Of a stretch of 64,000 nt of DNA, positions 25,591 through 44,509 are shown in pieces. Each line of letters begins with the position of its first letter. The first letter of the stretch is position 1. A model generated the notes under the pieces. It was not told the DNA's origin and did no database searches. It was given only the letters and a program-made list of their open reading frames with translations. This DNA comes from Deltaproteobacteria bacterium (GTDB taxonomy: Bacteria; Desulfobacterota; BSN033; UBA1163). The stretch is from NCBI GenBank assembly GCA_018333535.1, contig JAGXTA010000046.1:20551-84550 (forward strand). The letters are read 5' to 3'. Both the position numbers and the translations under genes were made by a program.

Positions 25591-26126
25591 AAGTTGCTGT
25601 CAGCGCAACAGGAAAAGACCTCAATTGCCAAATCGATCCAAGGTTTGGAAGATGCCAGTATTTTATCTTTATCGATCCTGAGACCATGGAGTTTGATGCC
25701 TTTGGGAATGAAGGGTTAATGGCAATGGGTGGTGCCGGGGTTCAGGCCGCACAGCTTATTGTCCAAAAAGGGGCAAGCGCTCTGATTACGGGCAATCTTG
25801 GACCCAATGCCGCTTCAGCTCTCTCAGCATCAGGAATCAAAGTCTACTTAGTTCCTGGAGGGACAATAAGGGAAGTTACCGAAGCATTCAAGGATGGAAA
25901 ACTTCAGGAGGCAAGTGGGCCTACGGTTCCTCCTCATTTTGGAATATCCCCTTCTCCATCCCTCTCCCCCAAGAGACTGTGTCGTAATTCCGTTCATGGT
26001 TCGAGAGCCTCACCACGAACGGATTATGACATGTTGAAAATCAATCACTTAGCCGTTCGTCCTGAGCGTGTCGAAGGGCGAATGGCTAATTATGACACAG
26101 TCTCCAAGGGGAGAGGGCGAGGGTGA
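25587..26126 (+). CDS. NifX-like domain protein with a low-complexity C-terminal tail
   Basis: MKVAVSATGKDLNCQIDPRFGRCQYFIFID...ITGNLGPNAASAL...GIKVY. The last about 200 nt are highly structured DNA, so the true C-terminus is uncertain. Confidence 0.65.
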   Translation: MKVAVSATGKDLNCQIDPRFGRCQYFIFIDPETMEFDAFGNEGLMAMGGAGVQAAQLIVQKGASALITGNLGPNAASALSASGIKVYLVPGGTIREVTEAFKDGKLQEASGPTVPPHFGISPSPSLSPKRLCRNSVHGSRASPRTDYDMLKINHLAVRPERVEGRMANYDTVSKGRGRG

Positions 26127-26257
26127 GGGGGAGTATGGGTGGCCGTAGAGGTTAAAGAACGAATATTACGAATAGCTACGAATTATTCGAATAAAATCCT
26201 TTCGTTAAATTCGGTACCATTTGAATAATTCGCCTGTGAAAGAAAGGAAGGATAATT

Positions 26258-26470
26258 ATGCCTTACGGAATGGGACCTGCTGGATGGAGACACCATCCTT
26301 ATGGATATGGGAGAGGCTGGTGTTGGAACCCCGGGTCGTACGGAGCGCCTGTTCCACCATGGGGATCTCCAACCAAAGAAGATGAAATCCGATTTCTTGA
26401 AGAGGAAGCCAATTTCCTTCGAGGAGAGTTAGGCCAGATTGAAAAAAGGCTCGACGAACTGAAAAAATAA
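26258..26470 (+). CDS. DUF5320 family small protein, paralog 1
   Basis: Gly/Pro/aromatic-rich N-terminus (MPYGMGPAGW...GYGRGWC). C-terminal coiled helix (EEEANFLRGELGQIEKRLDELKK). RBS GGAAGG. Confidence 0.65.
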   Translation: MPYGMGPAGWRHHPYGYGRGWCWNPGSYGAPVPPWGSPTKEDEIRFLEEEANFLRGELGQIEKRLDELKK

Positions 26471-26478
26471 AAATGCTT

Positions 26479-26615
26479 TAGGGTAAAGGTTAGGAAGCCG
26501 GTTTAGTATTTGGTCATAGGGTTACGGCTTAAAAATTTTAAGCCCCGACTACGTAACCCTTTAACGAAACCGGCATCTTAACCCTAACCTTCCGACTAAC
26601 GACTTTTATTCGAAG
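26479..26615 (+). other. Nested palindromic RNA/DNA structure between DUF5320 paralogs
   Basis: The outer arms TTAGGGTAAAGGTTAGGAAGCCGGTTT and AAACCGGCATCTTAACCCTAACC enclose AGGGTTACG-[GCTTAAAAATTTTAAGCC]-...CGTAACCCT. Confidence 0.4.
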
Positions 26616-26628
26616 GGAGGTGTTTTCT

Positions 26629-26889
26629 ATGCCAGGATTTGATGGAACAGGGCCACGAGGGATGGGCCCAATGACTGGAGGAGGCAGAGGCTTTTGTGCA
26701 ATGCCAAACAGAGGCTACGGTCCATCCGGGTATAGCATGCAGGCACCTTATTATCCACCTTCCGGTGGTTATCCATTTTATGGAAGATCATTTTCCGGCC
26801 CCGTCTTTGGCGCAGGCCGTGATGGCCTCCCATGGGGTGGAGGCCGCGGAAGATGTTTTGGTGGCGGGCGAGGGTTCCGTCGTTGGTAG
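26629..26889 (+). CDS. DUF5320 family small protein, paralog 2
   Basis: MPGFDGTGPRGMGPMTGGGRGFC hallmark. RBS GGGAGGTG. The ORF track begins at an upstream GTG at 26620. Confidence 0.7.
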   Translation: MPGFDGTGPRGMGPMTGGGRGFCAMPNRGYGPSGYSMQAPYYPPSGGYPFYGRSFSGPVFGAGRDGLPWGGGRGRCFGGGRGFRRW

Positions 26890-27047
26890 TGGCAATTTGT
26901 AGTGATTGCATGGGGGCCATCGATGGAACCCAACCCCCTAACCCCTTTAGGGGAGAAGGGAGACCTGCCTACCGGCAGGCATGGGGAGTATTTCTTGCGC
27001 TATACTCTGTGCGCTATGCGGTTTTGTAGGTATAGGAGGTGATAAAA

Positions 27048-27278
27048 ATGCCAAGAGGAGACGGAAAATGTCCCCCCGGAGGCAGTGGTCCAGGAACAGG
27101 AAGGGGTGCCGGAATGGGTGGATCTCGTAAGGGAAGAATGGGTGGTTCCAAAGCAGGTGCAGGCCCTGGAGGAGAATGTATGTGTCCAAAATGCGGGACG
27201 ACTGCTCCTCATGAGGCTGGAGGGCCTTGTTCATTTAAGAACTGCCCGAAATGCGGTGCAAAGATGGTGAGAAAATAA
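27048..27278 (+). CDS. DUF5320-like small protein, paralog 3, with a C-terminal CxxC...CxxC zinc ribbon
   Basis: MPRGDGKCPPGGSGPGTGRGAGMGG... followed by CPKCG...CPKCG. RBS TAGGAGGTG. Confidence 0.65.
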   Translation: MPRGDGKCPPGGSGPGTGRGAGMGGSRKGRMGGSKAGAGPGGECMCPKCGTTAPHEAGGPCSFKNCPKCGAKMVRK

Positions 27279-27300
27279 TTTATTCGATAAGAAAACGAAA

Positions 27301-27777
27301 TTGGATTTAAAAATAGGGGAATCCATGAATGAAATGTTGACCGGTCAAAAAAGGCAGGGAGAAGTCAATCTACACAGAAATTGTTTTGCCTGTGGTTCAA
27401 ATGTCGGAATAGGTTTAGGACTAAAGTTTTATAAGAATGAAGATGGAGCTGTCTTCGGAAGTTTCTTTGCAGATTCGAAGTTTGAAGGTTATTCGGGCAT
27501 CATTCATGGAGGAATTATAGCTACTCTGTTGGATTCTGCGATGACCCACTGTCTCTTAATGAAAGATATCCCTGCCCTCACGGGAAGATTGTCGATCAAG
27601 TATTCTACCCCCATTCGAACAGGAACAGTTGTGAAGTTAGAAGCAAGGATTGTTGACCAAGTCCATGAAATGTTCATTTTACAAGGGAAGGCTTGGGTGG
27701 ATGGGAAGAAGGTGGCAAGTGCAGAGGCCAAATATAGGAGCATGAAAAGAAGGGGCAATCAAGAGGCGAAGAAATGA
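27301..27777 (+). CDS. PaaI/hotdog-fold thioesterase family protein
   Basis: GIIHGGIIATLLDSAM motif and length. Confidence 0.75.
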   Translation: MDLKIGESMNEMLTGQKRQGEVNLHRNCFACGSNVGIGLGLKFYKNEDGAVFGSFFADSKFEGYSGIIHGGIIATLLDSAMTHCLLMKDIPALTGRLSIKYSTPIRTGTVVKLEARIVDQVHEMFILQGKAWVDGKKVASAEAKYRSMKRRGNQEAKK

Positions 27778-27992
27778 CGCTTTTCCCATCTAAGGATCCT
27801 TCTTTAGAAAATAAATTGATCGGGAATATTCTAAGGGAATATCCCCGGATGGCCAGGATCATGGAAAGATATTTTGGTGGACATTGCCTGGAAAGGTCTG
27901 GCTTTAAGATCCAGACACTCGGGATGGCCTGCATCCTATTCGGCGTCGATCAGAAGCAGTTGCTTCAAGAATTTGAGAAAATCCAAAATTGA
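27774..27992 (+). CDS. DUF1858 domain protein (hybrid-cluster-protein-associated redox disulfide-like)
   Basis: IGNILREYPRMARIMERYFGGHCLERSGFKIQTLGMACILFGVD matches the DUF1858 pattern (Y-P...HC...C...TL.EA....G.D). Confidence 0.6.
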   Translation: MTLFPSKDPSLENKLIGNILREYPRMARIMERYFGGHCLERSGFKIQTLGMACILFGVDQKQLLQEFEKIQN

Positions 27993-28951
27993 TAGACATG
28001 ACAAAAAACCCAAGTGGCCCGAAATACATCTTTGGACCGGTTCCTTCCAGAAGATTGGGAAGATCCTTGGGAGTCGATCTTGTCCCATATAAAACCTGTA
28101 CCTTTGATTGCATCTATTGCGATTTGGGAAGGACCACTTTTAAAACAACCTCTCGAAAATCTTATGTATCAACTGAGGAAGTCCAAAGGGAACTGGATCT
28201 TACTTTATCTCCCTTAGAAAAGAAGCCAGATTACATTACTCTCTCCGGGTCAGGGGAGCCCACATTGAATCAAAATATTGGAGATATCATCCACACCATC
28301 AAGCATTGGACTTCTATCCCTGTGGCAGTTCTAACGAACGGCTCTCTCCTCTCTATCGAAGAAGTCAGAAAAGATTTAATTGATGCCGATGTGGTTTTGC
28401 CTTCTCTCGATGCCATCAACGACGTGACTTTCCAGTGTTTGAACAGACCTCACCCGTCGTTAAAAATAGATGAAATCATTTTGGGTCTCATTCAATTTCG
28501 AAATCAGTATCGAGGCCAAATCTGGCTCGAAGTGGTCTTTTGCAGAGGGATAAACGACGATAAAGAGGAGATTGAAAGACTCAAAGGGATCATCGAAAGA
28601 ATCCAGCCCGATAGGGTTCAATTGAACACACCCGTCAGGCCGCCTGCTGAAGAATTTGCTTATCCCTTAACAACAACTCAGATTGAAGAAATAAGGAAAA
28701 AATTGGGAGATAAGGCGGAGATTATTTCTGAATTTACTGCTCCCCTGGGAGAAGAATTTAACTCCGTGAAGGATACAGAGATTCTTAACTTGATCAAGAG
28801 AAGACCTTGCACAACGGAAGATATTTCTAAAGCTCTTGGACTCCGTATAGATGAAGTTGTGAAGCATTTAGATCATCTTACAAAAACAGGGCCAATCCGA
28901 TATCGAATGTATGAGCACCATTGTTATTACGAGTTTAATGTAACTAATTGA
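27989..28951 (+). CDS. Radical SAM protein (COG0731-like) with a C-terminal winged-helix-like region
   Basis: CTFDCIYCDLG CX3CX2C motif near the N-terminus. 320 aa. Confidence 0.8.
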   Translation: MIDMTKNPSGPKYIFGPVPSRRLGRSLGVDLVPYKTCTFDCIYCDLGRTTFKTTSRKSYVSTEEVQRELDLTLSPLEKKPDYITLSGSGEPTLNQNIGDIIHTIKHWTSIPVAVLTNGSLLSIEEVRKDLIDADVVLPSLDAINDVTFQCLNRPHPSLKIDEIILGLIQFRNQYRGQIWLEVVFCRGINDDKEEIERLKGIIERIQPDRVQLNTPVRPPAEEFAYPLTTTQIEEIRKKLGDKAEIISEFTAPLGEEFNSVKDTEILNLIKRRPCTTEDISKALGLRIDEVVKHLDHLTKTGPIRYRMYEHHCYYEFNVTN

Positions 28952-29023
28952 AAAAACCCTCCCCTTTTCCCCTCTCCCTGCTGGGGATAGGGTAAGGGTG
29001 AGGGGTGACAGGTAACGAAGATC

Positions 29024-29890
29024 ATGATCATTTCAATCGCAAGCGGGAAAGGAGGGACCGGAAAGACCACCATCGCCGTTAATTTAGCTCTCTCTCTATC
29101 AAAAGGGACTGTCCAACTAATTGATTGCGATGTGGAGGAACCTAATTCCCACCTTTTTCTATCCCCCACCATCCACCAGGTTACCTCTATGGGAATTCCG
29201 GTCCCCCGAATTGATGAATCAAAATGTACATATTGCGGCAAATGTGGAAAGGTCTGTGAATACCATGCAATTGCTGTCATTTTGAAAAACGTTCTGGTTT
29301 TCGACGAGCTCTGCCACGGATGCGGTGCCTGCTCTTACTTATGCCCAGAAAAAGCCATATTCGAAGTGGAAAGAGAGATTGGAATTGTCCAGGAAGGAAG
29401 TGCGGATGGAATTCCATTCGTTAATGGAGTTCTTAATATTGGAGAACCCATGGCTTCTCCACTGATCCGGAAGGTAAAGGAGAGTATTCAAAAGGATAAA
29501 ACCGTCATTCTCGATGCCCCTCCAGGGACAGCCTGCCCTGTTATTGAAACCGTCAAAGGAAGTGATTTTTGCGTCCTCGTTACAGAGCCGACCCCCTTTG
29601 GGCTGAATGATTTAGAGTTAGCTGTAGGAATGTTGGAAAAATTAGGAATTTCGATGGGAGTTGTAATCAACAAGGCGGATGTTGGGGACCGAGAAGTCTG
29701 GGATTACTGCCAATCGAAAAATATCCCTATTTTAATGGAAATTCCCATGGATCGGAGGATTGCTGAATCCTATTCAAGGGGAGTTCCAATTGTTGTCGAA
29801 TATCCTTCTTACAAGCAGGGATTCAAAGGTCTATTTGAAAAGGTGGAGAAACTCCATGAGTCAAGTCGAAGAAATGGAGCAGTTAAGTGA
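29024..29890 (+). CDS. MinD/ParA-type P-loop ATPase with a 2x[4Fe-4S] ferredoxin insert
   Basis: Walker A ASGKGGTGKTT, then CTYCGKCGKVCEYHA and CHGCGACSYLCP ferredoxin motifs. Confidence 0.85.
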   Translation: MIISIASGKGGTGKTTIAVNLALSLSKGTVQLIDCDVEEPNSHLFLSPTIHQVTSMGIPVPRIDESKCTYCGKCGKVCEYHAIAVILKNVLVFDELCHGCGACSYLCPEKAIFEVEREIGIVQEGSADGIPFVNGVLNIGEPMASPLIRKVKESIQKDKTVILDAPPGTACPVIETVKGSDFCVLVTEPTPFGLNDLELAVGMLEKLGISMGVVINKADVGDREVWDYCQSKNIPILMEIPMDRRIAESYSRGVPIVVEYPSYKQGFKGLFEKVEKLHESSRRNGAVK

Positions 29891-30320
29891 TGAGGTGGGC
29901 TACCTCGTCTATAATGAAACGTTGATCGATCACTTTATGCATCCCAGAAATGCGGGAGAAATAGAAAACCCCGATGCAATGGCGACCGTTGGTGATCCTA
30001 CCTGCGGGGATTTTATTAGGGTGTACCTGAAGGTGGAAGCCGGGAAGATATCCGTCTTTAAATTTTTGACCCAGGGTTGTCCTGGAGCCATTTCCACTTC
30101 CAGCATTGCCACAGAAATGGCTATTGGTAAGACTCTCGATGAGGCGTTGAAATTGACAGACAACGATGTGATCGAAGCTGCCGGTGGCATCCCGTCAAGA
30201 AAAGCCCACTGCTCCCTTCTGGCAATCAGAGGATTGCATCAGGCCATTTTGAATTATCACACCTCATCCCATCCCTCGCCCCAAGAAGGAAGGGGGGAGG
30301 GTGAAGAGGAAAGGAAGTAG
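29856..30320 (+). CDS. NifU N-terminal/IscU-like Fe-S cluster scaffold domain protein
   Basis: HFMHPRNAG...GDPTCGD...TQGCPGAISTSSIATEM...GKTLDEA. RBS GGTGGAG. The C-terminal 17 aa are encoded by a G-rich REP element. Confidence 0.8.
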   Translation: MSQVEEMEQLSDEVGYLVYNETLIDHFMHPRNAGEIENPDAMATVGDPTCGDFIRVYLKVEAGKISVFKFLTQGCPGAISTSSIATEMAIGKTLDEALKLTDNDVIEAAGGIPSRKAHCSLLAIRGLHQAILNYHTSSHPSPQEGRGEGEEERK

Positions 30321-30323
30321 TAA

Positions 30324-31205
30324 GTGGAACAAAATGAAATTAAACAATTAGCCATTGTCAGTGGAAAAGGTGGAACAGGAAAAACCACTCTTGCTGCTGC
30401 TTTTGCCGCTTTAGCTAAGAATAAAGTGATGGTGGACTGCGATGTGGACGCGGCAGACCTGCATCTCTTGCTTCAGCCGAAGATCCTAATGCAAGAGAAG
30501 TACTTTGGGGGAAGATCACCGCATGTCGATTTGGATAAATGCACCCAGTGTGGGCTCTGTACTGAGGTATGCCGCTTCCATGCCATTGATAATGGGGTGG
30601 TTGATCCTGTTTCGTGTGAGGGGTGTGGCTTTTGTAGACACATTTGCCCTGAAGAAGCCATTGTGATGGAAGAGGCTTTTTCAGGAGATTGGTTTGTCTC
30701 CGAAACACCCTATGGTCCATTTGTCCATGCACGATTGGGAATAGGAGAGGAGAATTCCGGTAAACTCGTAACTGTCGTCCGAAAAAAAACGGTTGAGATT
30801 GCAAAAGAGAAGAACCTTGACCTCATACTGATCGACGGCCCCCCAGGCATCGGATGTCCGGTCACGGCCTCGTTGACCGGAGTGAATCTGGTCTTAGCCA
30901 TCACAGAGCCTACTCTTTCAGGAATTCATGATTTGGAAAGAATCTTGAAACTCTCCGATCACTTTAAAATTCCCTCGATGGTCTGCGTCAATAAATTCGA
31001 CATTAACCTTGAGAATACGGCCCAAATAGCATCCTACTGCAAGAAGAACGGTTCCCGCCTCATCGGTCAAATTCCTTACGAGCCAAAAGTGGTCGAGGCA
31101 CTGGTTCAAAGGAAGACAGTGATAGACTACCCTTGCAATGAAGTTCAGGGGATTTTGCTCAAGATGTGGCAGGGCATAGAGATGACTCTGCGGGGCGAAG
31201 CATGA
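30324..31205 (+). CDS. MinD/ParA-type P-loop ATPase with a 2x[4Fe-4S] ferredoxin insert (second paralog)
   Basis: Walker A VSGKGGTGKTT, then CTQCGLCTEVCRFHA and CEGCGFCRHICP. Confidence 0.85.
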   Translation: MEQNEIKQLAIVSGKGGTGKTTLAAAFAALAKNKVMVDCDVDAADLHLLLQPKILMQEKYFGGRSPHVDLDKCTQCGLCTEVCRFHAIDNGVVDPVSCEGCGFCRHICPEEAIVMEEAFSGDWFVSETPYGPFVHARLGIGEENSGKLVTVVRKKTVEIAKEKNLDLILIDGPPGIGCPVTASLTGVNLVLAITEPTLSGIHDLERILKLSDHFKIPSMVCVNKFDINLENTAQIASYCKKNGSRLIGQIPYEPKVVEALVQRKTVIDYPCNEVQGILLKMWQGIEMTLRGEA

Positions 31206-31942
31206 CCGAATACAAGAAATATTGTTATTGGTTGGATTCGAACAGGTTCACATTGGTCAAGAAAGTTCTTGAGGAAGAAGGGAATCAAGGGACCGATGAA
31301 ACTCATTTGCCATGTCGCGTCATCAAAACCTCGACGGAGCTGGGTTATATCGCCCCTTCTGCCTGGAACGGGTTCTGTAAAAGAAGAACTTCCTGGTATT
31401 GGAAGTCTGATAAGGCAGAAAAATTCCTGATTGTCAGTAACAAACCAATGGACATTGCAGGGCGTAAAGATCCAATTACGATTGTGGAGTCGAATTTCAA
31501 ACCCGATCGCTTACCTTCCGAGAAAGAGATTCTTGAATTGATCGAATTAGACGAATACCGCAAGAGAAAACCGAAGGGATGGGACAAGCCTGAGGCTATC
31601 GAAAAGGATTTCTACCAGATATACTTTGAGCGCTATGGGGCCACAGACTCTTTTGATTTCGAAAAACTCCTTAAATACCATTCGGCAAATCATGCCAATT
31701 TCATCGATCCTCAATTCTTCGAAAATATCAAGGGAGAAAAGGCGCCTTATTCGATTTCGGATAGCTTTTATGTCTGTTCCTCATGTCTTGAATTTTTCAA
31801 CATTCTGGGAGAAAAATGGCCAATCAAATATGTAGTGCCGTGCATTGGTGCGGTTAAGTTTGCTGGCCTTCCAATGAACCATTATTTTGAAGTCAAAACT
31901 TTTGGGGCCGTTAACTCAGATGGTAGAGTATCTGCCTTTTAA
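31202..31942 (+). CDS. Hypothetical protein (246 aa, no recognisable domain). The 3' end overlaps tRNA-Lys.
   Basis: Long ORF starting at MTEYKKY, overlapping the stop of the upstream gene. Its last 38 nt run into the tRNA and the stop codon falls in the anticodon loop, so the true 3' end is uncertain. Confidence 0.45.
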   Translation: MTEYKKYCYWLDSNRFTLVKKVLEEEGNQGTDETHLPCRVIKTSTELGYIAPSAWNGFCKRRTSWYWKSDKAEKFLIVSNKPMDIAGRKDPITIVESNFKPDRLPSEKEILELIELDEYRKRKPKGWDKPEAIEKDFYQIYFERYGATDSFDFEKLLKYHSANHANFIDPQFFENIKGEKAPYSISDSFYVCSSCLEFFNILGEKWPIKYVVPCIGAVKFAGLPMNHYFEVKTFGAVNSDGRVSAF

Positions 31943-31977
31943 GCAGAGAGTCGTGGGTTCGAGTCCCGCACGGCCCA
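31905..31977 (+). tRNA. tRNA-Lys (anticodon UUU)
   Basis: Manual cloverleaf fold. Acceptor stem GGGCCGT/ACGGCCC (7/7 bp). D arm ACTC/GAGT. Anticodon stem TCTGC/GCAGA with loop CTTTTAA. T arm GTGGG-TTCGAGT-CCCGC. Discriminator A. CCA is not encoded. Confidence 0.85.
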
Positions 31978-31989
31978 CTATTCTAATAA

Positions 31990-32292
31990 ATGGAACAAAG
32001 ATTCAGTCACGAGATGAAAATGGTCCCCATTGAGTTGAAACCCAATCTATCGAGTTGTATTGAAACCCTATCGAAAAGAGAATATGAAAGGACACTCAAT
32101 CTCCTTCTTAAAGAAGGGAGTGTGGACAAAAGGCTTGGAGAAAGGCTTGAAGTTTTAAGGCTGTTTCTGGAGTCAACAGATTTTGGTCACCTTCGAAGTC
32201 AATATGAAGGATATCTCACGGAGGGGAAAAAGGTCACATTCCTCATCTATCCCGAAGAGGGGAAAGCGAGGTATAAGTTGGTAGTGGAATGA
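31990..32292 (+). CDS. Hypothetical protein
   Basis: 100-aa ORF downstream of the tRNA. No recognisable domain. Confidence 0.35.
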   Translation: MEQRFSHEMKMVPIELKPNLSSCIETLSKREYERTLNLLLKEGSVDKRLGERLEVLRLFLESTDFGHLRSQYEGYLTEGKKVTFLIYPEEGKARYKLVVE

Positions 32293-32407
32293 TAGGGTGT
32301 TACGACAAGCTGATCTGATAGAGGGTTTTTTGCAGCGGGTTGGTGAATTTGCAGGGAAATAATCTAACTGACGAGTCACTCTCTTCAGTTTTTGGAAGGA
32401 GGATTAT

Positions 32408-32641
32408 ATGCCGATTTATGAGTACCGTTGTGAGAGGTGTGGTCAAGAGAATGAATTTCTAATTATAGGAAGGAAGGAGAAACTCCGATGCAAACAATGC
32501 GGGAGCGAGGATTTGACGAAGCTGCTGTCTGCCCATAATACATCCAACAGCTCTTCGCGAAGATCTTCTGAACCCGGTCCCGGAGGCTGTTGCGGGGCGC
32601 CTAATTCCTGCGGAACACCGGGGAGTTGTTGTTCTGGGTAG
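32408..32641 (+). CDS. FmdB-family zinc-ribbon protein with a Cys/Gly/Ser-rich tail
   Basis: MPIYEYRCERCG...CKQCGS hallmark. RBS GGAAGGAGG. Confidence 0.7.
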   Translation: MPIYEYRCERCGQENEFLIIGRKEKLRCKQCGSEDLTKLLSAHNTSNSSSRRSSEPGPGGCCGAPNSCGTPGSCCSG

Positions 32642-32713
32642 GTATGGCACTTCTACGGTTCTTTTCTTAAGAGGGTGTTCGGGTAGTAAAAAGATAAAAA
32701 GGAGGTGAAAACC

Positions 32714-32998
32714 ATGTTATCAAATATACCCATCAATCTTGAGCTTGTTGGAAAGGGAGACACGGACAAAGAAATACTAAGGGCCGGGGTCATCGCGGAA
32801 CTGGACGCTATCAACCTTTACGAACAAATGGCCGCCATGGCCAAAGATAAGAATCTCAAAAAAATTCTGCTTGATATAGCCAAAGAAGAGAAAACTCATG
32901 TCGGAGAATTCCTGACACTGCTCCTGAGAAAAGACGGAGAGCAAGAAGCGGAGCTAGAAAAGGGAAAAAAAGAGGTTGAAGAGTTGATGGAAAAGTAG
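32714..32998 (+). CDS. Ferritin-like/rubrerythrin-like small protein (EncFtn-like)
   Basis: ELDAINLYEQMA...IAKEEKTHVGEF, with the E..H di-iron ligand pattern. Strong RBS AAGGAGGTG. An alternative GTG lies at 32705. Confidence 0.6.
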   Translation: MLSNIPINLELVGKGDTDKEILRAGVIAELDAINLYEQMAAMAKDKNLKKILLDIAKEEKTHVGEFLTLLLRKDGEQEAELEKGKKEVEELMEK

Positions 32999-33131
32999 GA
33001 ATGGTAGGACGTTTCTAAGGATGTTGTCGCCGAGGATATTCATTGTCATATTGAAGATATTGTTTCAAATTCCAAATTGGATTCTAAAAGTGATAAAATG
33101 AGACTAGAACGAAGACCAAAGGAGGTGTCTT

Positions 33132-33839
33132 ATGGCCGAAGCAATAGATGGATGCGTGAAACCGGCAAAAGGGCCAATTATGGCTGGAGAATCGAAAGCC
33201 TCTCAACTGTCACCAATTCAAAAGGAGGAAATCAAAATGATCGCTCGAGTTGGCAAACCGGCGCCCGATTTTGAGGCAAGCGCCTATGTGGATGGGGGAT
33301 TCAAGAACATTAAGCTTTCAAATTATAAAGGAAAGTGGGTCGTCCTTTGCTTTTACCCTGGAGATTTTACCTTTGTCTGACCTACTGAATTGTCGGCAGT
33401 TGCCGCCAAATATCAAGAATTCAAGTCCCTTGGCGTAGAATTTTTATCATTCAGCACAGACAGTCGTTTTACCCACAAGATCTGGCAGGAGGAGGAGCTC
33501 TCAAAAATGGTTCCAGGTGGAGTGCCATTTCCAATGCTGTCAGATGCAGGTGGTCGTATTGGTAGTGTCTATGGAGTCTACGATGAAGATGCAGGGGTGG
33601 ACATTCGGGGTCGTTTTTTAATCGATCCGGATGGAGTCATTCAAGCCATGGAGACGGTCACGCCACCGGTGGGCCGGAACGTTTCTGAACTGATCCGACA
33701 GGTCAAGGCTTTTCAGCATACACGCGTTACAGGTGAGGTGATGCCTTCCGGATGGCAGCCTGGAAAACCGACCTTAAAGCCCGGTCCTGATTTGGTGGGA
33801 AAAGTTTGGAAGGTCTGGAAACCGGAAATGGCCTATTAA
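33132..33839 (+). CDS. Peroxiredoxin (AhpC/Tsa family) with in-frame UGA (selenocysteine predicted) at the peroxidatic-Cys position. Copy 1.
   Basis: ...FYPGDFTFV[TGA 33378-33380]PTEL... where the family has FVCPTE. The ORF track shows two same-frame ORFs split only by this TGA. The N-terminal 35-aa extension is conserved by synonymous changes in copy 2. Confidence 0.8.
33392..33407 (+). promoter_or_regulatory. Candidate bacterial SECIS hairpin 11 nt downstream of UGA in copy 1
   Basis: GTCGGCAGTTGCCGCC, a small stem-loop with GUU in the loop. Conserved in copy 2 at 38734-38749. Confidence 0.4.
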
Positions 33840-33878
33840 ATTTTTTCTGGATATGTCCCAGGGAGGCGGTCACGATCA

Positions 33879-34853
33879 ATGAACGATATCATTCAAGTGA
33901 GAGATCTAACGAAGTTCTATGGGAACACCCCTGCTATTGACCATATCTCCTTTGAAGTCAAAAAAGGGGAGGTCTTTGGTTTCCTTGGACCAAATGGAGC
34001 AGGGAAAACGACCACCATTCGGATGATGGTAGGCCTGACCCAACCCAGTTCCGGCACCGCATTGGTCGATGGCCACGATATTTTGAAGGAACCCGTGGAG
34101 GTCAAAAAGACAATTGGCCTTGTACCTGAAACCTCAAACCTCTATGGGGAGCTTACCGCACTTGAAAACCTTATCTATCAGGCAGAGATCTATGGAGTTC
34201 CAAGAAAAGAGCGCCGAATTAAAGCGATCCAGCTTCTTGAGGAATTCGGTTTGAAGGAACATCAAGACAAATCTTTTCAGAAATTATCGAGAGGATTAAA
34301 GCGAAGGCTAACGATTGCCGCTGCATTGATCCACCATCCCAAAATCCTCTTCCTTGATGAACCCACTACAGGTCTGGATGTGATGAGTGCAAGGGGGCTG
34401 AGGAAACTTATCCTTGATTCAAAAAAGAAAGGATTAACCATCTTTCTCACCACTCATTATATCCCTGAAGCAGAAAGCCTTTGTGATCGTATTGCTATTA
34501 TTGTTCAAGGGAAAATACGGGTCGTGGATACCCCCGAAAATATAAGAGACCAGATGAAGGAGGCCGAAGTCCTTGAGATCGGACTGGATCGCACTCCAGA
34601 GGATTTAAAGAGTAAGCTCCCTTCCGTGGATGGGATCGACAAGATTGTGATAGACGAAAACCGTATCCGTTTTCATACCAGGAGACTCGATCAGGTTGCA
34701 TCTCCTGTTATGAGATTCCTTGAAGGACACGGGGCCAAAATTAAATCGATTAATACGTTGAGTCCAAGCCTTGAAGATGCTTTTGTGAAAATAACCGGTC
34801 TCGATTCAGAGTTGATGAAGATCGATAAGCCAATGAAAGCAGGTCCGGAATAA
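33879..34853 (+). CDS. ABC transporter ATP-binding protein (ABC-2 type exporter)
   Basis: Walker A GPNGAGKTT, signature LSRGLKRRLTIA and Walker B LFLDEP. Confidence 0.9.
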   Translation: MNDIIQVRDLTKFYGNTPAIDHISFEVKKGEVFGFLGPNGAGKTTTIRMMVGLTQPSSGTALVDGHDILKEPVEVKKTIGLVPETSNLYGELTALENLIYQAEIYGVPRKERRIKAIQLLEEFGLKEHQDKSFQKLSRGLKRRLTIAAALIHHPKILFLDEPTTGLDVMSARGLRKLILDSKKKGLTIFLTTHYIPEAESLCDRIAIIVQGKIRVVDTPENIRDQMKEAEVLEIGLDRTPEDLKSKLPSVDGIDKIVIDENRIRFHTRRLDQVASPVMRFLEGHGAKIKSINTLSPSLEDAFVKITGLDSELMKIDKPMKAGPE

Positions 34854-34920
34854 TTTCCTCTCTCTCCCCCATGCGCCTGCCTGCCGGTAGGCAGGGGAGA
34901 GGGCGAGGGTGAGGGGGAAT

Positions 34921-35658
34921 ATGGAAGAACTCAAAAAAGTCTATTTCATAGCTAAAAAAGATATGGGGGCCTACTACCTCAAGCCTCCCTTAATCAGTTG
35001 GGGATTGATGCTTCCCATCGTCTTTGTATTAGCTTTCTATTTCAGAAATCCGGCGGGAATCAAAGAGGTCGTCCCAGGATTGATTGGTTTGACCCTTCTC
35101 TTCTCATGCACGTCCATGGCAGCCATCGTGATTACCTTTGAGAAAAGAATAGGTGCTCTGGAGCGGCTCCTCCTGGCACCATTGGAGATCAGAACGATCC
35201 TCTTCGGCAAGACCCTTGGAAGTTCTGTATTCGGGTTGGTTATCACCATCGTCATCACAATATTTCTCATTCCAATTATAGGCCTTTCTATTAATTATCC
35301 CTTTTCTTTTTCTCTCATTATCATCCTTTCTGGTATCGCCTTCTCACTCCTTGGAATCCTTATTTCTGTAGGAGTAAAGGAAGTCTTCGAAGCCATGACC
35401 ATGTCCAATTTCTTTCGATTCCCAATGATATTTTTATGCGGGGTCTTCTTTCCTGTGCCTTCCATGCCCTTCCCTCTTCCTATCCTCTCTTATCTCCTAC
35501 CATTGACCTATACGGTTGATGGTTTGAAACATTGCCTGTTGGAAGATAAAGGAATGATCCCTTTTTATCTGGATTTATTAATTTTATTAGGATTCGTTTT
35601 TTTACTCTTTAGTCTCTCGTTATTCATTTTTAAGAAAAGAATTCGCCAAGAATTCTGA
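34921..35658 (+). CDS. ABC-2 family transporter permease
   Basis: Six TM segments with an ABC-2-like topology. The ORF track begins at 34909 inside a REP element. Confidence 0.8.
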   Translation: MEELKKVYFIAKKDMGAYYLKPPLISWGLMLPIVFVLAFYFRNPAGIKEVVPGLIGLTLLFSCTSMAAIVITFEKRIGALERLLLAPLEIRTILFGKTLGSSVFGLVITIVITIFLIPIIGLSINYPFSFSLIIILSGIAFSLLGILISVGVKEVFEAMTMSNFFRFPMIFLCGVFFPVPSMPFPLPILSYLLPLTYTVDGLKHCLLEDKGMIPFYLDLLILLGFVFLLFSLSLFIFKKRIRQEF

Positions 35659-35673
35659 AAGGAGGTGAAAACC

Positions 35674-35814
35674 ATGTGCCAAAGTAAATCTGGTTGCACC
35701 CAACCCGAAAATCTGAAGGGAACCCCAAAGGATTGCTCGGCCGAGCAGATCAACGTCTGTCATCCTGGAGAGAAGGGGCATCCCTGTGAGGCTGAGGAAA
35801 CGGAAAGAAAATAG
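35674..35814 (+). CDS. Small Cys-rich protein (46 aa, 5 Cys)
   Basis: Strong RBS AAGGAGGTG, then a 7-nt gap, then ATG. MCQSKSGCTQPENLKGTPKDCSAEQINVCHPGEKGHPCEAEETERK. Below the 60-aa ORF-track cutoff. Confidence 0.4.
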   Translation: MCQSKSGCTQPENLKGTPKDCSAEQINVCHPGEKGHPCEAEETERK

Positions 35815-36093
35815 ATGATGTTTTATAAAAAAGAATGTATCATCAGTTCCGTTGAGACTCAGATTATCTTCACTTAAAAATCCCTCCGAACTTCCCTTTA
35901 GAGAGATGGTGGGATTTGATTTGCAGGGCGAGGCTTTAGCTTTGCATCAAGCAACCCTAAAGAGCTGCCCTACAAATAATTGGAGAAGGGGGTGTATTTG
36001 TTATTTGATCATATGGAAAGGAGGTGATGGACTGAAGATTAAATTCGGTTGGGTGGGGATGAATCTATAAAAATTAAAAGGGAGGTGGAAGTC

Positions 36094-37155
36094 ATGTTAA
36101 AGGAGATGAATCGAAGGGACTTTTTAAAGACAACAGCAGCGACAGGTGCGGTATTGATGGCAGGAGATGTTTTGAAAGGAGGTGCTACAATGGCATATGG
36201 TTCTGTAAAAATCCCAGAGGTTGAAAAATTGGTTATTACCGTCATAACGGACAATTACTATGATTGCCTGAGGCCAAATTACAAGGTGGCTAAGAGATAT
36301 TTCATCATTCCTGGTACATCTATCCATTCAGAGCATGGCTTGGCTTATTACATCGAGACGGCCATCAATGGCAAGCCCAATACCTTTATGTTTGATTATG
36401 GATTGGATTTCCAGGGGGTCGGTAAAAACATGGAGCTTCTCGACATCGACGTGAAGAGAGTAGAGGCACTAGGGATAAGCCATGGCCATTTTGACCATTG
36501 GGGAAATCTTATTGCCATTCTCAAATATAATAGAACGAAAATCAGGAAGGGGATCCCCTTGTATGTAGGTGAGGAAACCTTTTCTCACAGGTTTGCCAAA
36601 CTGCCACCCGGACCTTTCGAAGTAAGTGGTCTCATTGATCTGGAGCAGTTGAGAAGGGATGAGATCGAAAGCCTCGGCACGGTTAAGATTGTAGAGGTAA
36701 AAGATCCGACTCTTATTGTTCCTGGAGCATATCTGACTGGAAATATTGAAAGAGTTACCGAATATGAGAAAGGGTCGCCGATTTTATTAATCAAAAGAGG
36801 AGATAAAATGGATCTCGATCTCTTCATGGGAGAGCAGGCACTGGTATTTAATGTAAAGGGAAAGGGTTTGGTAGTTGTCTCATCCTGTGCCCATGCCGGG
36901 ATTGTCAACACAGTAAAACACGCCCAGAAAATGACTGGAATAGATAAAGTCCATGCCATCATCGGAGGATTTCATTTGAGCGGTGCCAAACCTGAGGTAA
37001 TCCAGAGGACGATTGCCGACATCAAGGCTGTTACTCCAGAATACATCGTTCCCATGCACTGTACTGGATTTGAGGCCGTCACAGCATTCGCCAGAGAAAT
37101 GCCAGGGCAATTTATCATTAACACTGCCGGAACCAGATACATCTTTACAGCTTAG
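36094..37155 (+). CDS. MBL-fold metallo-hydrolase with a twin-arginine (Tat) signal
   Basis: MLKEMNRRDFLKTTAATGAVLMA Tat motif. HGHFDHWG metallo-beta-lactamase motif. RBS GGGAGGTGG. Confidence 0.8.
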   Translation: MLKEMNRRDFLKTTAATGAVLMAGDVLKGGATMAYGSVKIPEVEKLVITVITDNYYDCLRPNYKVAKRYFIIPGTSIHSEHGLAYYIETAINGKPNTFMFDYGLDFQGVGKNMELLDIDVKRVEALGISHGHFDHWGNLIAILKYNRTKIRKGIPLYVGEETFSHRFAKLPPGPFEVSGLIDLEQLRRDEIESLGTVKIVEVKDPTLIVPGAYLTGNIERVTEYEKGSPILLIKRGDKMDLDLFMGEQALVFNVKGKGLVVVSSCAHAGIVNTVKHAQKMTGIDKVHAIIGGFHLSGAKPEVIQRTIADIKAVTPEYIVPMHCTGFEAVTAFAREMPGQFIINTAGTRYIFTA

Positions 37156-37163
37156 ATTGACCC

Positions 37164-37203
37164 GGGGCGTTGAGGTTTCATTCACCTCAACGCCCCCTTT
37201 TTT
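37164..37203 (+). terminator. Rho-independent terminator
   Basis: The stem GGGGCGTTGAGG-tttcatt-CCTCAACGCCCC is followed by CTTTTTTT. Confidence 0.8.
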
Positions 37204-37307
37204 ACAGGGCTTTTTGAGATTGAGATTCAAGTTCTGCTGAATATTTTTGGAGCGAAAAGGTGAGATCCTTTTATCTAAATCAGAAGAGGTGAGGAGGGGG
37301 ATTTTAT

Positions 37308-38459
37308 ATGAGATCTTTTCTTAATCAATATGTTAAATTACCCATCGTTTTATTTGCCTTAATTCTTCCCTTATTTTTTACTATATCAATCTCTCTCGCT
37401 TTAGACTTCGCTCCCATTCGAACCCCGTCCACCGGCTATCAACCTCAATTTCAAGTCTCAGGGAACAAAATCTACTATGTCTGGCATGAGTACGATGGTC
37501 CCTATCGGCAGATTTTCACTGCGGAAATGAACACTGATGGGACAGGATGGAGGTCAGAAAAAAGAACTTCTGGCCAATTTGATAAAGTCTTTCCTCAACT
37601 TCAGGTTGCGAATGACAAGATCTATTATGTTCGTCAGCAACCTGATCTAACAATAAATCGCCAGATCTGGACGATGGAGATGAGCATTGACGGAACAGGA
37701 TGGAAAGAGGTTCAGAGGACGAATACCCCCTTTGATAAGCAGTTTCCCCAGCTACAGGTGGTTGGCAATAAAATTTATTATACCTGGAATGAATCAGATG
37801 GAAAACACCGCCAGGTATGGACAGCAGAGATGAATTTAGATGGGTTGGGCTGGGAGGCAGTGAAAAGGACCTCAACACCTTATGACAAATTTGAGCCTCA
37901 GCTTCAGGTCGTGGGTGAAAAAATCTATTTCGTTTGGAGGGAGTTTGACGGAAGACATTTTCAGATCTGGACGGCTGTCATGGATATTGATGGGAAAGGG
38001 TGGCAAGAAGTGAAGCGGACAAATACCCTGTTCGACAAACATAACCCGCAACTCCAGGTGGATGAAGGAAGAATCTACTATACCTGGCATGAAGCAGATG
38101 GCCCGGATTGGCAAAAAGCAAGATATCAGATATGGACAGCTCAGATGAACATCAATGGAACAGGATGGCTGGCGAATCAAAGAACCTTTGTAGGCTTTGA
38201 TAAGTATACCCCCCAATTACAAGTTCAACGAGGAAGAATTTATTATATCTGGGAGGAATCTGATGGGAAATATCGTCAGATTTGGACGGCTGTGACGAGT
38301 AAGGATGGAACGGGATGGATATCTGAAAAGAGGACGACATCTCCTTATGGAAAATACGACCCCCAATTTCAGATTGTTGGGAATAGAGTTTATTATGTGT
38401 GGCACGAAGACCACGGACCTACTGAACCCATCTGGGTGGCTATAGAGACACTAAAATAG
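37308..38459 (+). CDS. Secreted repeat protein with about 6.5 tandem copies of a roughly 46-aa unit (beta-propeller-like)
   Basis: Signal peptide. Repeats of [48 protein letters not shown]. Confidence 0.7.
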
Positions 38460-38473
38460 AAAGGAGGTTAAAT

Positions 38474-39181
38474 ATGGCTGAAGCAAAAGATGGATGTGTG
38501 AAGCCGGCAAAGGGGCCCATCGGTTTGGCGGAAACCAAAACCTCTCAAACCGCACAAATCCAAAAGGAGGAATTGAAGATGATGGCTCAAGTTGGAAAAC
38601 CAGCACTGGATTTTGAAGCGAGTGCCTATATCGACGGGGGTTTTAAAAATATCAAATTATCTGATTATAAAGGCAAATGGGTAGTCCTCTGTTTTTATCC
38701 CGGTGATTTCACGTTCGTTTGACCTACCGAGTTGTCGGCAGTTGCCGTCAAATACGATGAGTTCAAATCGCTCGGAGTTGAGGTTTTGTCATGCAGTACA
38801 GATAGCCGCTTCATCCACAAGATCTGGCAGGAAGAAGAACTCTCGAAGATGGTGAAAGGTGGGGTTCCCTTTCCGATGCTGTCGGATGCAGGAGGCCGCA
38901 TCGGGAGTGCCTACGGCGTCTACGATGAAGAAGCAGGAGTCAATATTCGGGGTCGTTTTTTGATCGATCCGGATGGGGTCATCCAGGCAATGGAGACTGT
39001 TGCTCCACCGGTCGGCAGGAACGTTCCCGAACTGATCCGGCAGGTCAAGGCCTTTCAGCATGTGCGTGCAACGGGTGAGGTCATGCCTTCCGGATGGCAA
39101 CCTGGGAAACCGACCCTAAAACCCGGACTGGATTTGGTTGGCAAAGTATGGAAAGTCTGGAAACCCGAGATGGCTTTTTAA
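38474..39181 (+). CDS. Peroxiredoxin (AhpC/Tsa family) with in-frame UGA (selenocysteine predicted) at the peroxidatic-Cys position. Copy 2.
   Basis: ...FYPGDFTFV[TGA 38720-38722]PTEL.... About 75-80% nt identity to copy 1 across the whole gene, including the N-terminal extension. Confidence 0.8.
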
Positions 39182-39272
39182 CACTATTCCCTGACCCCCT
39201 GCCTACCGCGAGGCAGGCATCCCTCTCCCCCTGCCTACCGGCAGGCAGGCGCTGGGGAGAGGGAGAGGTAAA

Positions 39273-39734
39273 ATGTACAGATGTATGATGGATAAGGAAG
39301 CTCATCAACTTAAAGATTTTTTAGAATTGGGTGGACTAAAAAGTACCAAAGAAAGAGAAACGATTCTCAAAGAACTTGAAGTTCTGGAGGAACATTTCAA
39401 CGCTGAAAAACTATATTCAATTCTCAGCAGAAAGGGAACGAAGGTCTCACGACCTACTATTTATCGAACGCTAAAGCTTCTTGAACGATTCCATCTCATT
39501 GAAAGGCTCGATGTTAAAAAGAACTGTTTCTATTACGAGCCTATGTCTCATAAAAAGGACCATGGCCATCTGGTTTGCGAGCATTGTGGGAGGATTATTG
39601 ATTTTGCAAGTGAGAGTATTCAAGATTTGAAATCGGAGGTATTCGAGGGGAAGAACTTCAAACTGGACAATATTTCCATTCAGATATTCGGCATATGCGA
39701 GACATGTCAGAAAACATCTAAAATTAAAAGCTAA
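39273..39734 (+). CDS. Fur-family transcriptional regulator (PerR-like by context)
   Basis: HGHLVCEHCG...CETCQ metal sites and the Fur fold. It lies between the Sec-peroxiredoxin and the Sec-NADH-oxidase-like gene. Confidence 0.8.
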   Translation: MYRCMMDKEAHQLKDFLELGGLKSTKERETILKELEVLEEHFNAEKLYSILSRKGTKVSRPTIYRTLKLLERFHLIERLDVKKNCFYYEPMSHKKDHGHLVCEHCGRIIDFASESIQDLKSEVFEGKNFKLDNISIQIFGICETCQKTSKIKS

Positions 39735-39750
39735 ATATGAGGAGAGGAAG

Positions 39751-41118
39751 ATGTTAAAGAAAGAGAAACTTGTCATCATTGGCGGATCGGCCGCTGGCCC
39801 CAGTGCAGCAGCCAGGGCAAAGCGAGTTAATCCTGATCTTGAAGTGACTATGTTCGAACAGGGTCGATTCGTATCCTATGGCTCCTGAGAAACTCCTTAT
39901 TACATCGGTGATGTAGTAAAAGATCAGAGCAAATTGATAGTCCGGACACCCCAACAGTTTAAAGAAATGCAAGATATTGATGTGAAGACCGAGCATCGCG
40001 TCACTAAAATTGATTCCAAAGAGAAAAGGATTGAAGTTGTGAATTTATCAAAATCCGAAACTCAATGGTTTTCTTACGACAAACTTATCGTTGCTACAGG
40101 TGCCCGATCCAGACGTCTCAATATTCCCGGAAGCAATGCCAAGAACATATTCACCCTGAAAGATCTTGATGACGGCATCCGTATTAAGAATTATATCGAT
40201 GAAAAAAGGCCGAAAAGGGTTGCTATCCTCGGTGGTGGCTTTATTGCATTGGAGATGTGCGAGGCTTTTCGGTTAAGAAATTGTGAGACCTTTCTATTCT
40301 GCCGCAGAGATTTACCCGCGGGTAATCTCGAAAGGGAAATCTCTGAAAAAATATTGAAGGAGTTAGAAGAGAATGGCATTCATTTCCTCGCCCATCATGA
40401 ACCCGCAGCATTTAAGATGAATAGTAATGGAGAAGCCATCTCCTTCGAAACCAATAAAGCCGAATATCCTGTGGATATGGTCTTGATGGCCATTGGAGTC
40501 ATTCCGAATGTGGAAATAGCTAAAGAGGCAGGTATTGAGCTTGGAAAGACCGGAGCGATTCGAACAGACACGGCTCAAAGGACTAATCTTACAGACATTT
40601 ATTCGGCAGGAGACTGCTCAGAAGTTTTTAATCTCGTGAGTCAGGATTGGGTTCATACACCCCTTGGAGATATTGCGAACAAACAGGGCCGGGTGGCAGG
40701 TGAGAACGCTGCCGGTGGAAAGGCCACTTTTTCCGGTGCAGTGGGGTCAGCTGCTTTTAAGGTTTTTGAATTGGAGGTGGCCTTCACAGGTTTAGGAACA
40801 CAGACTGCCCGAGGATATGGTTTTGATGTGGATTCACAGATCATTGAGGCTGAATCGAAGGTAGGATATATGCCGGGATCAAAATGGATGCTCATTAAGT
40901 TGATTTTTGATAGAAGGAGTGGAAGGCTTTTGGGTGCTCAGATGGTCGGGAAGGAAGGAGTGGCTCGGAGGATCAACGCCCTTGCGGTCGCGGTTCATCA
41001 GAAGATGAGCGTGGACGAAATTGCACGGCTCGATTTTGCTTATGCGCCTCCTTTCTCCGCTCCCTTGGATCCGATTTTAATAGCTGCCGAGCAGGCAGCG
41101 AAGAAAATCGTTAGGTAG
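39751..41118 (+). CDS. NADH oxidase/CoA-disulfide reductase-family FAD-dependent oxidoreductase with in-frame UGA (selenocysteine predicted) at the redox-active Cys position
   Basis: RBS GAGGAGAGG. N-terminal FAD motif LVIIGGSAAGPSAAARAKR. FVSYGS[TGA 39886-39888]ETPYYIGDVV compares with the family motif ISFANCGLPYYIGG. The frame is continuous with ORF 39934-41118. Confidence 0.75.
39896..39919 (+). promoter_or_regulatory. Candidate bacterial SECIS hairpin beginning about 10 nt after UGA
   Basis: Stem TTATTACATC/GATGTAGTAA with one mismatch. Apical loop GGU. Confidence 0.45.
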
Positions 41119-41164
41119 AAAATACAGGATTCTGAATTTAATAAAAATCCAAAAGGAGGAGAAC

Positions 41165-41341
41165 ATGGCAGTCATTATTGATCTGGAAAAATGCACAGGA
41201 TGCGGTACTTGTGAAGAGGGTTGTCCGGTAGAGGCCATTAAGATTGAGAATGAGAAGGCTGTAGTCGATGCAGAGACCTGCGTTGATTGTGGCACCTGTA
41301 TCGATGAATGTGCTGAAAAAGCCATCAGCGAAGGAACATAA
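41165..41341 (+). CDS. 2x[4Fe-4S] ferredoxin (58 aa)
   Basis: CTGCGTCEEGCP and CVDCGTCIDEC motifs. RBS AAAGGAGG. Below the ORF-track size cutoff. Confidence 0.8.
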   Translation: MAVIIDLEKCTGCGTCEEGCPVEAIKIENEKAVVDAETCVDCGTCIDECAEKAISEGT

Positions 41342-41347
41342 GGAGCA

Positions 41348-41797
41348 ATGAAAAAGTCTGGAAAAGTTGTCGGTGTGTGTACGAGTCAAAGGAGGGCTGA
41401 TCCAAAGATAAATGTTGGTAGGGGTCTCCTCAAAATGGGTCATGGGCTAGTAGGCGATTCTCATGCCGGGACTGAGAAAGAGGTTAGCCTTTTGGCGATG
41501 GAGAGTATCCAAAAACTTTGCCAGGAGACGGGGCTCTCGGCTGGGCCTGGATCCTTTGCTGAAAATATCACCACGGAAGGGATTGATTTGACCTCTCTCC
41601 CCGCAGGTACCCAATTACAGATCGGACAAACAAAACTCAAGGTTATTCAAATTGGAAAAGATCCATCTCAAGCTCACACTTACAACTATCAGGGATTTTC
41701 CATTTTACCGAAGGAAGGCGTGTTTTGTAAGGTCATTGAAGGTGGGGAGATAAAAGTAGGAGATTCTATAAAGATACTCAAAAACCAAGAGGTTTAG
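41348..41797 (+). CDS. MOSC domain protein
   Basis: 149 aa, YiiM/MOSC-like, with GDSHAG and VIEGGEIKVGD. Confidence 0.65.
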   Translation: MKKSGKVVGVCTSQRRADPKINVGRGLLKMGHGLVGDSHAGTEKEVSLLAMESIQKLCQETGLSAGPGSFAENITTEGIDLTSLPAGTQLQIGQTKLKVIQIGKDPSQAHTYNYQGFSILPKEGVFCKVIEGGEIKVGDSIKILKNQEV

Positions 41798-41800
41798 AAG

Positions 41801-42271: not shown

Positions 42272-42281
42272 GGAGAGGAAT

Positions 42282-43361: not shown

Positions 43362-43362
43362 T

Positions 43363-44004: not shown

Positions 44005-44008
44005 CGCG

Positions 44009-44476: not shown

Positions 44477-44509
44477 GATCTTGATTTCGGGACTTGCTTA
44501 GAAATCTCA

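Follow-up and report, generated by a model that had tools for sequence, protein, structure and literature searches.

Tandem PrxU-type peroxiredoxin genes with a predicted selenocysteine codon in an uncultured Syntrophaceae-like anaerobe

The stretch of DNA analyzed here (the window) comprises 64,000 nucleotides of contig JAGXTA010000046.1, positions 20,551 to 84,550 of the forward strand, from the Deltaproteobacteria bacterium assembly GCA_018333535.1. It contains two genes, prxU-1 and prxU-2, in each of which a single in-frame UGA occupies the codon of the peroxidatic residue of a peroxiredoxin (Prx). Both genes very probably encode PrxU-type selenocysteine peroxiredoxins in which UGA is read as selenocysteine (Sec), and the metagenomic sequence appears to derive from an uncultured, anaerobic relative of the Syntrophaceae. 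An earlier note, made from the letters of the DNA alone, had proposed a Sec peroxiredoxin at the first of these loci. That interpretation is supported by membership of the PrxU family, by a covarying hairpin after the UGA, by purifying selection on the downstream part, and by the use of TGA as an ordinary stop codon in the window. The genes and their putative Sec codons are as follows.

33120..33125, + strand: Shine-Dalgarno sequence AGGAGG of the prxU-1 long form, 6 nt before ATG 33132, read from the sequence
33132..33839, + strand: prxU-1 long reading frame, 235 codons including the predicted Sec83, with matches to NF040737, PF00578 and PF10417
33378..33380, + strand: UGA of prxU-1, read as the Sec codon (putative peroxidatic residue, FTFV-U-PTE)
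38474..39181, + strand: prxU-2 paralog, 235 codons including the predicted Sec83, with a match to NF040737, aligned to prxU-1
38720..38722, + strand: UGA of prxU-2, read as the putative Sec codon

In prxU-1, an 82-codon open reading frame (ORF; 33132-33380) is followed in the same frame by 152 codons running to a TAA at 33837-33839. The lone in-frame TGA between them, which had been described as the only interruption of a peroxiredoxin ORF, is indeed alone, and family profiles align straight across it. Its context, FTFV-U-PTEL, is identical in prxU-2, bearing out the claim that the Sec codon is present in two paralogs. The two genes lie in tandem, 5.3 kb apart, and share 88% identity at the DNA level and 87% at the protein level, which identifies them as true paralogs rather than a duplication introduced by assembly. 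Strong Shine-Dalgarno sequences are also present at the equivalent long-form start in orthologs. When all TGAs of the window flanked by long same-frame ORFs were scanned mechanically, only one further credible case was found (39886-39888).

The sequence around both genes is reproduced in public assemblies: 18.8 kb (window positions 25973-44853) are 100% identical to contig k141_32745 of ENA ERZ27300255 and to a contig of JGI 3300001813, with the caveat that these two assemblies may share the same reads. The earlier note had raised the possibility of a read error at the TGA; the codon is the same in both paralogs, and the ENA and JGI sequences agree on it, perhaps from the same reads. In the gene calls of both assemblies, each prxU gene is cut into a piece of 82 residues and another of 101-131 residues. 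To the left of 25973, the window falls on other contigs of both assemblies. Each of the two breaks into two contigs at about 25973-26113, where the two ENA contigs overlap by about 141 bp; since the window spans this join, it stems from another assembly or a better-resolved one.

For profile searches, U was replaced by C in the read-through proteins. Both scored far above the cutoff of 270 bits for the NCBIfam equivalog NF040737 ("peroxi_PrxU", thioredoxin-dependent peroxiredoxin), with 400.2 bits for prxU-1 and 401.3 bits for prxU-2, and the alignment covered profile positions 2-233 of 233, across the stop. Scores for the AhpC model TIGR03137 (196-209 bits) were below its cutoff of 272. Pfam matches to PF00578 (AhpC-TSA, E = 9e-39) and PF10417 (1-cysPrx_C) likewise extended across the stop. 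An alignment with Cys-containing homologs, proposed in the earlier note as a check, placed Cys51 of the best relative in the PDB, human Prx2 (5ijt, E = 6e-56), on the UGA without gaps. In both copies the UGA thus stands at the peroxidatic position of the PxxxTxxU motif, and P76, T80, U83 and R159 are invariant in the PrxU family alignment.

The same alignment places the resolving Cys172 of Prx2 (GEVCPAGW) on Met204 (GEVMPSGW), and neither window copy has a C-terminal resolving Cys. Throughout the clade examined, this site is nearly always Thr, Ala, Leu or Met, with Thr in most relatives. Given the absence of this residue, the proteins would not be typical 2-Cys peroxiredoxins in mechanistic terms. 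The expectation that frame and fold continue to an AhpC-type C-terminus was therefore right as to the continuation, while the C-terminus itself is not fully AhpC-type, its resolving Cys being replaced by Met.

When one genome per GTDB species was scanned, 80 loci with 81 close homologs were obtained. The codon at the Sec site was TGA in 80 of the 81 nearest orthologs and TGC in one. The TGA orthologs span Syntrophaceae, Anaerolineae, Nitrospiraceae, Ignavibacteria, Zixiibacteriota, Actinomycetota, Acidobacteriota, Bacillota, and others. Sec is the rule in this clade, and the statement that Sec peroxiredoxins are rare was not upheld. Between the window paralogs, the ratio of nonsynonymous to synonymous differences per site (pN/pS) was 0.06 ahead of the UGA (codons 36-82) and 0.08 beyond it (codons 84-235); with values so alike, the region downstream of the stop is evidently as constrained at the protein level as the region upstream. 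TGA is the stop codon of 13 of the 34 supported genes in the window, and internal TGA is limited to the two prxU genes and one gene resembling coenzyme A (CoA)-disulfide reductases (CoADR), at three catalytic-Cys positions. Among the protein-database matches listed (P0001-P0120), 46 of 120 homologs carry W at the Sec site, most simply because the translation used a code in which TGA means Trp; further database homologs are C-terminal fragments of 149 residues.

A selenocysteine insertion sequence (SECIS) element appears to be provided by a small hairpin directly downstream of each UGA.

33390..33409, + strand: putative SECIS hairpin of prxU-1, stem 33390-33398/33401-33409 with one U·C mismatch, apical GU at 33399-33400; based on fold, covariation, and codon bias
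38732..38751, + strand: putative SECIS hairpin of prxU-2, stem 38732-38740/38743-38751 with one U·U mismatch, apical GU at 38741-38742; based on fold

The stem begins 9 nt after the UGA in both copies, and the same register is found in 81 sequences. A small conserved hairpin after the UGA had been noted earlier with a spacer of 11 nt; the hairpin holds and covaries, and the true spacer to 33390-33409 is 9 nt. Counting the U of the UGA as position 1, the 9-bp stem joins positions 13-21 to positions 24-32, with G22-U23 at its apex, 19-20 nt past the UGA. All 81 sequences have this G22 and U23.

Covariation was tested on 81 distinct sequences, with 500 shuffles and with slid registers as a control. 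Standard pairs are formed in 87.7% of the hairpin cells, and compensatory double changes occur at 6 of the 9 pairs (70 doubly changed cells). None of the 500 shuffles was as good as the observed hairpin, and every slid register was far worse. The GU is always closed by a pair: A-U in 51 sequences, G-C in 28 and G-U in the other 2. The loop contexts are AGUU (52), GGUC (28) and GGUU (2), with no AGUC and no others. In one ortholog (L078), the whole stem has been exchanged for a different, perfectly complementary sequence, with the amino acids changed accordingly. Codon choice follows the same pattern: codon +6 ends in A or G in 82/82 genes (GCA/GCG in 79, ACA/ACG in 3, GCC/GCT never), and codon +7 is solely GTT or GTC (82/82), while in the rest of these genes the most frequent codons are GCC for Ala (43%) and GTG for Val (39%). 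This distortion indicates that the hairpin structure itself is kept. In the four Cys-encoding relatives examined, 4, 5, 7 and 8 of the 9 hairpin pairs are left; small as this sample is, the loss points the way one would expect if only genes that need UGA recoding keep the hairpin. Taken together, these features support the assignment of the prxU hairpin as a probable bacterial SECIS element.

Several observations weigh against this assignment and against Sec insertion. The hairpin is small, its stem carries a 1x1 mismatch in both window copies, and no Rfam family matches it in a search of 33300-33500 at E <= 10. On its own, it is thermodynamically unremarkable, with fold z-scores for prxU-1 of 0.0 (60 nt) and -2.0 (40 nt). 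The amino acid motif AVA overlaps the hairpin, meaning that nucleotide conservation stems partly from coding constraint. Finally, selA, selB, selD and tRNA-Sec were not found in the 64-kb window, where the profile scan for the Sec machinery (Pfam or NCBIfam) took in about 35 of roughly 60 genes, and where ARAGORN, as well as Rfam at gathering threshold, detected a tRNA-Lys only. The sole Rfam match at 33300-33500 at E <= 10, to DicF, lies on the opposite strand and was dismissed as a chance match.

Four other explanations for the in-frame UGA were weighed against its decoding as Sec. If the genes were pseudogenes, or the product of sequencing or assembly errors, the TGA would be a nonsense mutation or a miscalled TGC or TGT. 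This would fit the splitting of both genes into two ORFs by gene callers, and the agreement between the ENA and JGI assemblies counts for less if they share reads. The explanation is nonetheless effectively refuted: the TGA is shared by two paralogs with 12% divergence at the DNA level and recurs in 80/81 orthologs from many phyla, and it is followed by codons with a pN/pS of 0.08 and by a covarying hairpin. Equally negligible is the chance that TGA is read as Trp or Gly under an alternative genetic code (code 4/25), so that the residue is not Sec. The W found at this site in many public gene calls would agree with such a code, but TGA ends 13/34 genes in the window and is internal only at three catalytic-Cys positions, and a peroxiredoxin with Trp as its peroxidatic residue would be inactive. 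Moreover, the host is Syntrophaceae-like, and the Syntrophaceae are not known to have reassigned TGA.

Sec insertion in bacteria is generally inefficient and dependent on selenium supply, which lends some plausibility to a UGA that mainly terminates translation, yielding an 82-residue N-terminal product and/or a separately initiated C-terminal fragment, or that acts as a selenium-sensing attenuator. A TTG with an open frame at 33390 could serve such a fragment, but it is not preceded by a Shine-Dalgarno sequence, and neither fragment contains a complete Prx fold. As the hairpin also covaries and has the GU-loop geometry of a SECIS, we consider this explanation very unlikely; in addition, the native homolog of Eubacterium acidaminophilum was purified in Sec-containing form (Söhling et al. 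2001, as cited in PMC13188914). An even smaller probability was given to near-cognate read-through independent of any SECIS, in which Cys or Trp is inserted at a leaky UGA-C without Sec machinery. A C follows the UGA in 82/82 genes, but this C is forced by the Pro codon, the specific hairpin is under selection only in UGA forms, and a selC gene adjoins prxU in an Anaerolineaceae locus (L058, below). UGA-C is a weak termination context, which speaks in favor of read-through of this kind.

Decoding as Sec would proceed as follows. The UGA at 33378 (38720 in prxU-2) would be recoded during translation, with the mRNA hairpin exposing its G-U, 19-20 nt after the UGA, on the closing A-U or G-C pair. 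As a bacterial SECIS, the hairpin would recruit SelB·GTP·Sec-tRNA(Sec) to the ribosome. Sec83 (Sec48 when counted from an internal start) would then sit in the PxxxTxxU site of the Prx1/AhpC fold together with the conserved Arg159, where it would reduce H2O2 or organic hydroperoxides and become a selenenic acid. With Met (Thr in most relatives) at the site of the C-terminal resolving Cys, the oxidized Sec would have to be resolved by another thiol, either directly by thioredoxin or possibly by an invariant Cys8 in an N-terminal CxxPxxGP arm. For both prxU genes, we infer Sec insertion, peroxidase activity, the reductant, and regulation.

The elements of the N-terminal arm and of a putative internal translation start are listed here.

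33132-33179 and 38474-38521, + strand: codons 1-16 of the N-terminal extension, with the CxxPxxGP motif, in prxU-1 and prxU-2
33223..33228, + strand: internal AGGAGG of prxU-1, 8 nt before the in-frame ATG 33237
33237..33239, + strand: internal ATG (Met36), start of the canonical Prx domain and putative start of a short form
38565..38570, + strand: internal AGGAGG of prxU-2, 8 nt before the in-frame ATG 38579

In 79 of 83 genes, a possible start codon (ATG, GTG or TTG) is found in frame, 1-6 codons ahead of VGKPAPDF, where the Prx domain starts, and 57 of those 79 have an exact AGGAGG 5-11 nt upstream of this internal start. The AGGAGG occurs in all three frames, read as KEV, KEE, QEV, RR, KGG or GGG, which shows that the RNA sequence is conserved and not the peptide. 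The 35-codon N-terminal extension is nevertheless coding, as indicated by a pN/pS between the paralogs of 0.05 over its first 16 codons, a sign of strong purifying selection; the fast-evolving linker has a value of 0.63. In 78/83 genes the extension carries an invariant Cys within a CxxPxxGP motif, which in some lineages stands behind a signal peptide.

These patterns raise the possibility, which we regard as tentative and rather doubtful, that PrxU genes give rise to two in-frame products. In the long isoform, Cys8 would act as the resolving thiol and form a Se-S bond with the oxidized Sec, replacing the absent C-terminal Cys. The short isoform would work as a 1-Sec enzyme with thioredoxin as its direct reductant. 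The E. acidaminophilum PrxU has a recorded length of about 203 residues, which would equal the short form made from the internal Met. When a natural long protein of the Cys form was modeled with AlphaFold, the overall predicted local distance difference test (pLDDT) score was a confident 85.8, with a moderate 76 for residues 11-20, which make up the C-terminal half of the CxxPxxGP motif, and a poor 49 for the linker. No description of such a two-product or Cys8 scheme was found in the searchable literature, which did not cover the 2001 PrxU paper. Mutual exclusivity of the N-terminal Cys and a C-terminal resolving Cys was also considered; it is not clean, since one homolog (P0076) has both, and it was not used as evidence.

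Sec-containing peroxiredoxins of the PrxU family are already well established and frequent among anaerobic bacteria. One was purified from E. acidaminophilum (Söhling et al. 2001, as cited in PMC13188914 and PMC9312934), and in 2006 Prx was the fifth most frequent bacterial selenoprotein family, with 2-3 copies in several genomes (PMC1794560). A review places Prx (TxxU) outside its "predicted with high confidence" group, citing the E. acidaminophilum Sec-peroxiredoxin paper (PMC13188914). The prxU genes of the window are unannotated new members of this known PrxU family, with about 60-65% identity to Firmicutes-type PrxU members, and add nothing conceptually new on selenoproteins. Like the PrxU of Eubacterium (Peptoclostridium) acidaminophilum, they have the predicted Sec in FTFV-U-PTE, a Prx1/AhpC fold and no canonical C-terminal resolving Cys; their N-terminal extension is covered by the family profile NF040737. 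They differ from it in having Met rather than Thr at the former resolving-Cys site and in being present as two paralogs. With typical 2-Cys peroxiredoxins (Prx2, 5ijt/1qmv; AhpC, 1yep/4ma9) they share the PxxxTxxC motif, the Arg and the GEVxPxGW arm, but they would have Sec in place of the peroxidatic Cys, have Met in place of Cys172, and carry in addition the 35-residue N-terminal extension with its invariant Cys.

A similar comparison can be made for the hairpin. Like the SelB-bound SECIS of the Escherichia coli fdhF type, it is a stem-loop in the coding region just 3' of the UGA, with an apical G-U and covariation in the stem. It is shorter (9 pairs), its formal loop of 2 nt sits on a closing pair that covaries between A-U and G-C, a conserved bulged U was not identified in it, and no Rfam model matches it. 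In the E. coli fdhF element, the equivalent bases are G23/U24, and the minimal upper stem-loop, of 17 nt, lies 11 nt past the UGA; the GU at +22/+23 in prxU is similar.

In practical terms, the analysis allows a correction of annotation, as metagenomic PrxU homologs are often truncated or carry a false Trp in the active site. The alignment of 82 SECIS sequences, the conserved internal start and the N-terminal Cys arm may also offer entry points for work on the mechanism of PrxU.

Regarding the host, the closest genome is that of Syntrophaceae bacterium UBA2188, with 95% amino acid identity and a syntenic locus. The Syntrophaceae lineage is known for its wealth of selenoproteins. For Syntrophus aciditrophicus, 19 selenoproteins have been reported, a peroxiredoxin among them (PMC1794560). 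This affiliation and these selenoproteins, together with three UGA-plus-hairpin genes in the window, suggest that the host genome has the Sec-decoding trait. Across the ortholog loci, the only sel gene found beside prxU was a tRNA-SeC gene in Anaerolineaceae bacterium HK-STAS-CHLO-41 (L058, 5852-5947), located 53 nt upstream of the prxU ortholog; the neighbors of this tRNA-SeC gene are enzymes unrelated to Sec synthesis.

The third UGA-plus-hairpin gene lies about 700 bp downstream of prxU-2, behind a gene for a Fur-family regulator.

39273..39734, + strand: Fur-family regulator between prxU-2 and the putative Sec flavoprotein gene (PF01475, E = 5e-31), with synteny in the Syntrophaceae metagenome-assembled genome (MAG) locus L004
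39751..41118, + strand: CoA-disulfide-reductase/NADH-oxidase-like flavoprotein, with an in-frame UGA at 39886-39888 (VSYGS-U-ETPYY)
39897..39919, + strand: predicted hairpin of the CoADR-like gene, 10 bp with loop GGU at 39907-39909

The model TIGR03385 aligns across the UGA of this gene over its full length (positions 1-439) with 427 bits, below the equivalog cutoff of 578.8, suggesting a related subfamily rather than a proven CoADR. Its hairpin starts 11 nt after the UGA, placing the GGU at +22 to +24, and both TGA and hairpin are kept in two Syntrophaceae MAG loci, L003 and L004. Judging from these features, the product is a third candidate selenoprotein, with its TGA at the redox-active Cys. 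The CoADR family has been given as a predicted selenoprotein family (PMC13188914), and "NADH oxidase" is listed in PMC1794560; the published CoADR-type Sec motif is U-G-x-P, compared to U-E-T-P in the window gene.

Upstream of prxU-1 are a zinc-ribbon gene and a gene for a ferritin-like protein resembling EncFtn and rubrerythrin. It is followed by genes for a pair of ABC-2 transporter proteins, a metallo-beta-lactamase-like protein with a twin-arginine translocation (TAT) signal, and a repeat protein. By position and context alone, the Fur-family gene at 39273-39734 may be PerR-like. The stretch around prxU-1 and prxU-2 looks like a selenium-dependent peroxide-stress island, and recognition of a Sec-PrxU together with a Sec flavoprotein would point to such a peroxide-defense island in an uncultured syntrophic anaerobe. 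At the right end of the window, the ORF at 63503-63940 (- strand) has a C-terminus (...GLCGDCQ) that resembles those of Fur-family proteins.

Two features of the window concern repeats and mobile elements. A palindrome of about 19 nt that resembles repetitive extragenic palindromic (REP) sequences, CTGCCTACCGGCAGGCAGG and variants, was found at seven sites (17540, 17592, 18488, 26964, 34876, 39198 and 39230), where none is expected by chance; two copies stand directly after the prxU-2 stop, and one lies between the ABC transporter genes. A Y1 transposase gene of the IS200/IS605 type is located at 21630-22061 (- strand; PF01797, from the L083 gene table). It lies upstream of a gene for a sigma-54 activator and overlaps, on the other strand, with the end of a Nitro_FeMo-Co gene (PF02579).

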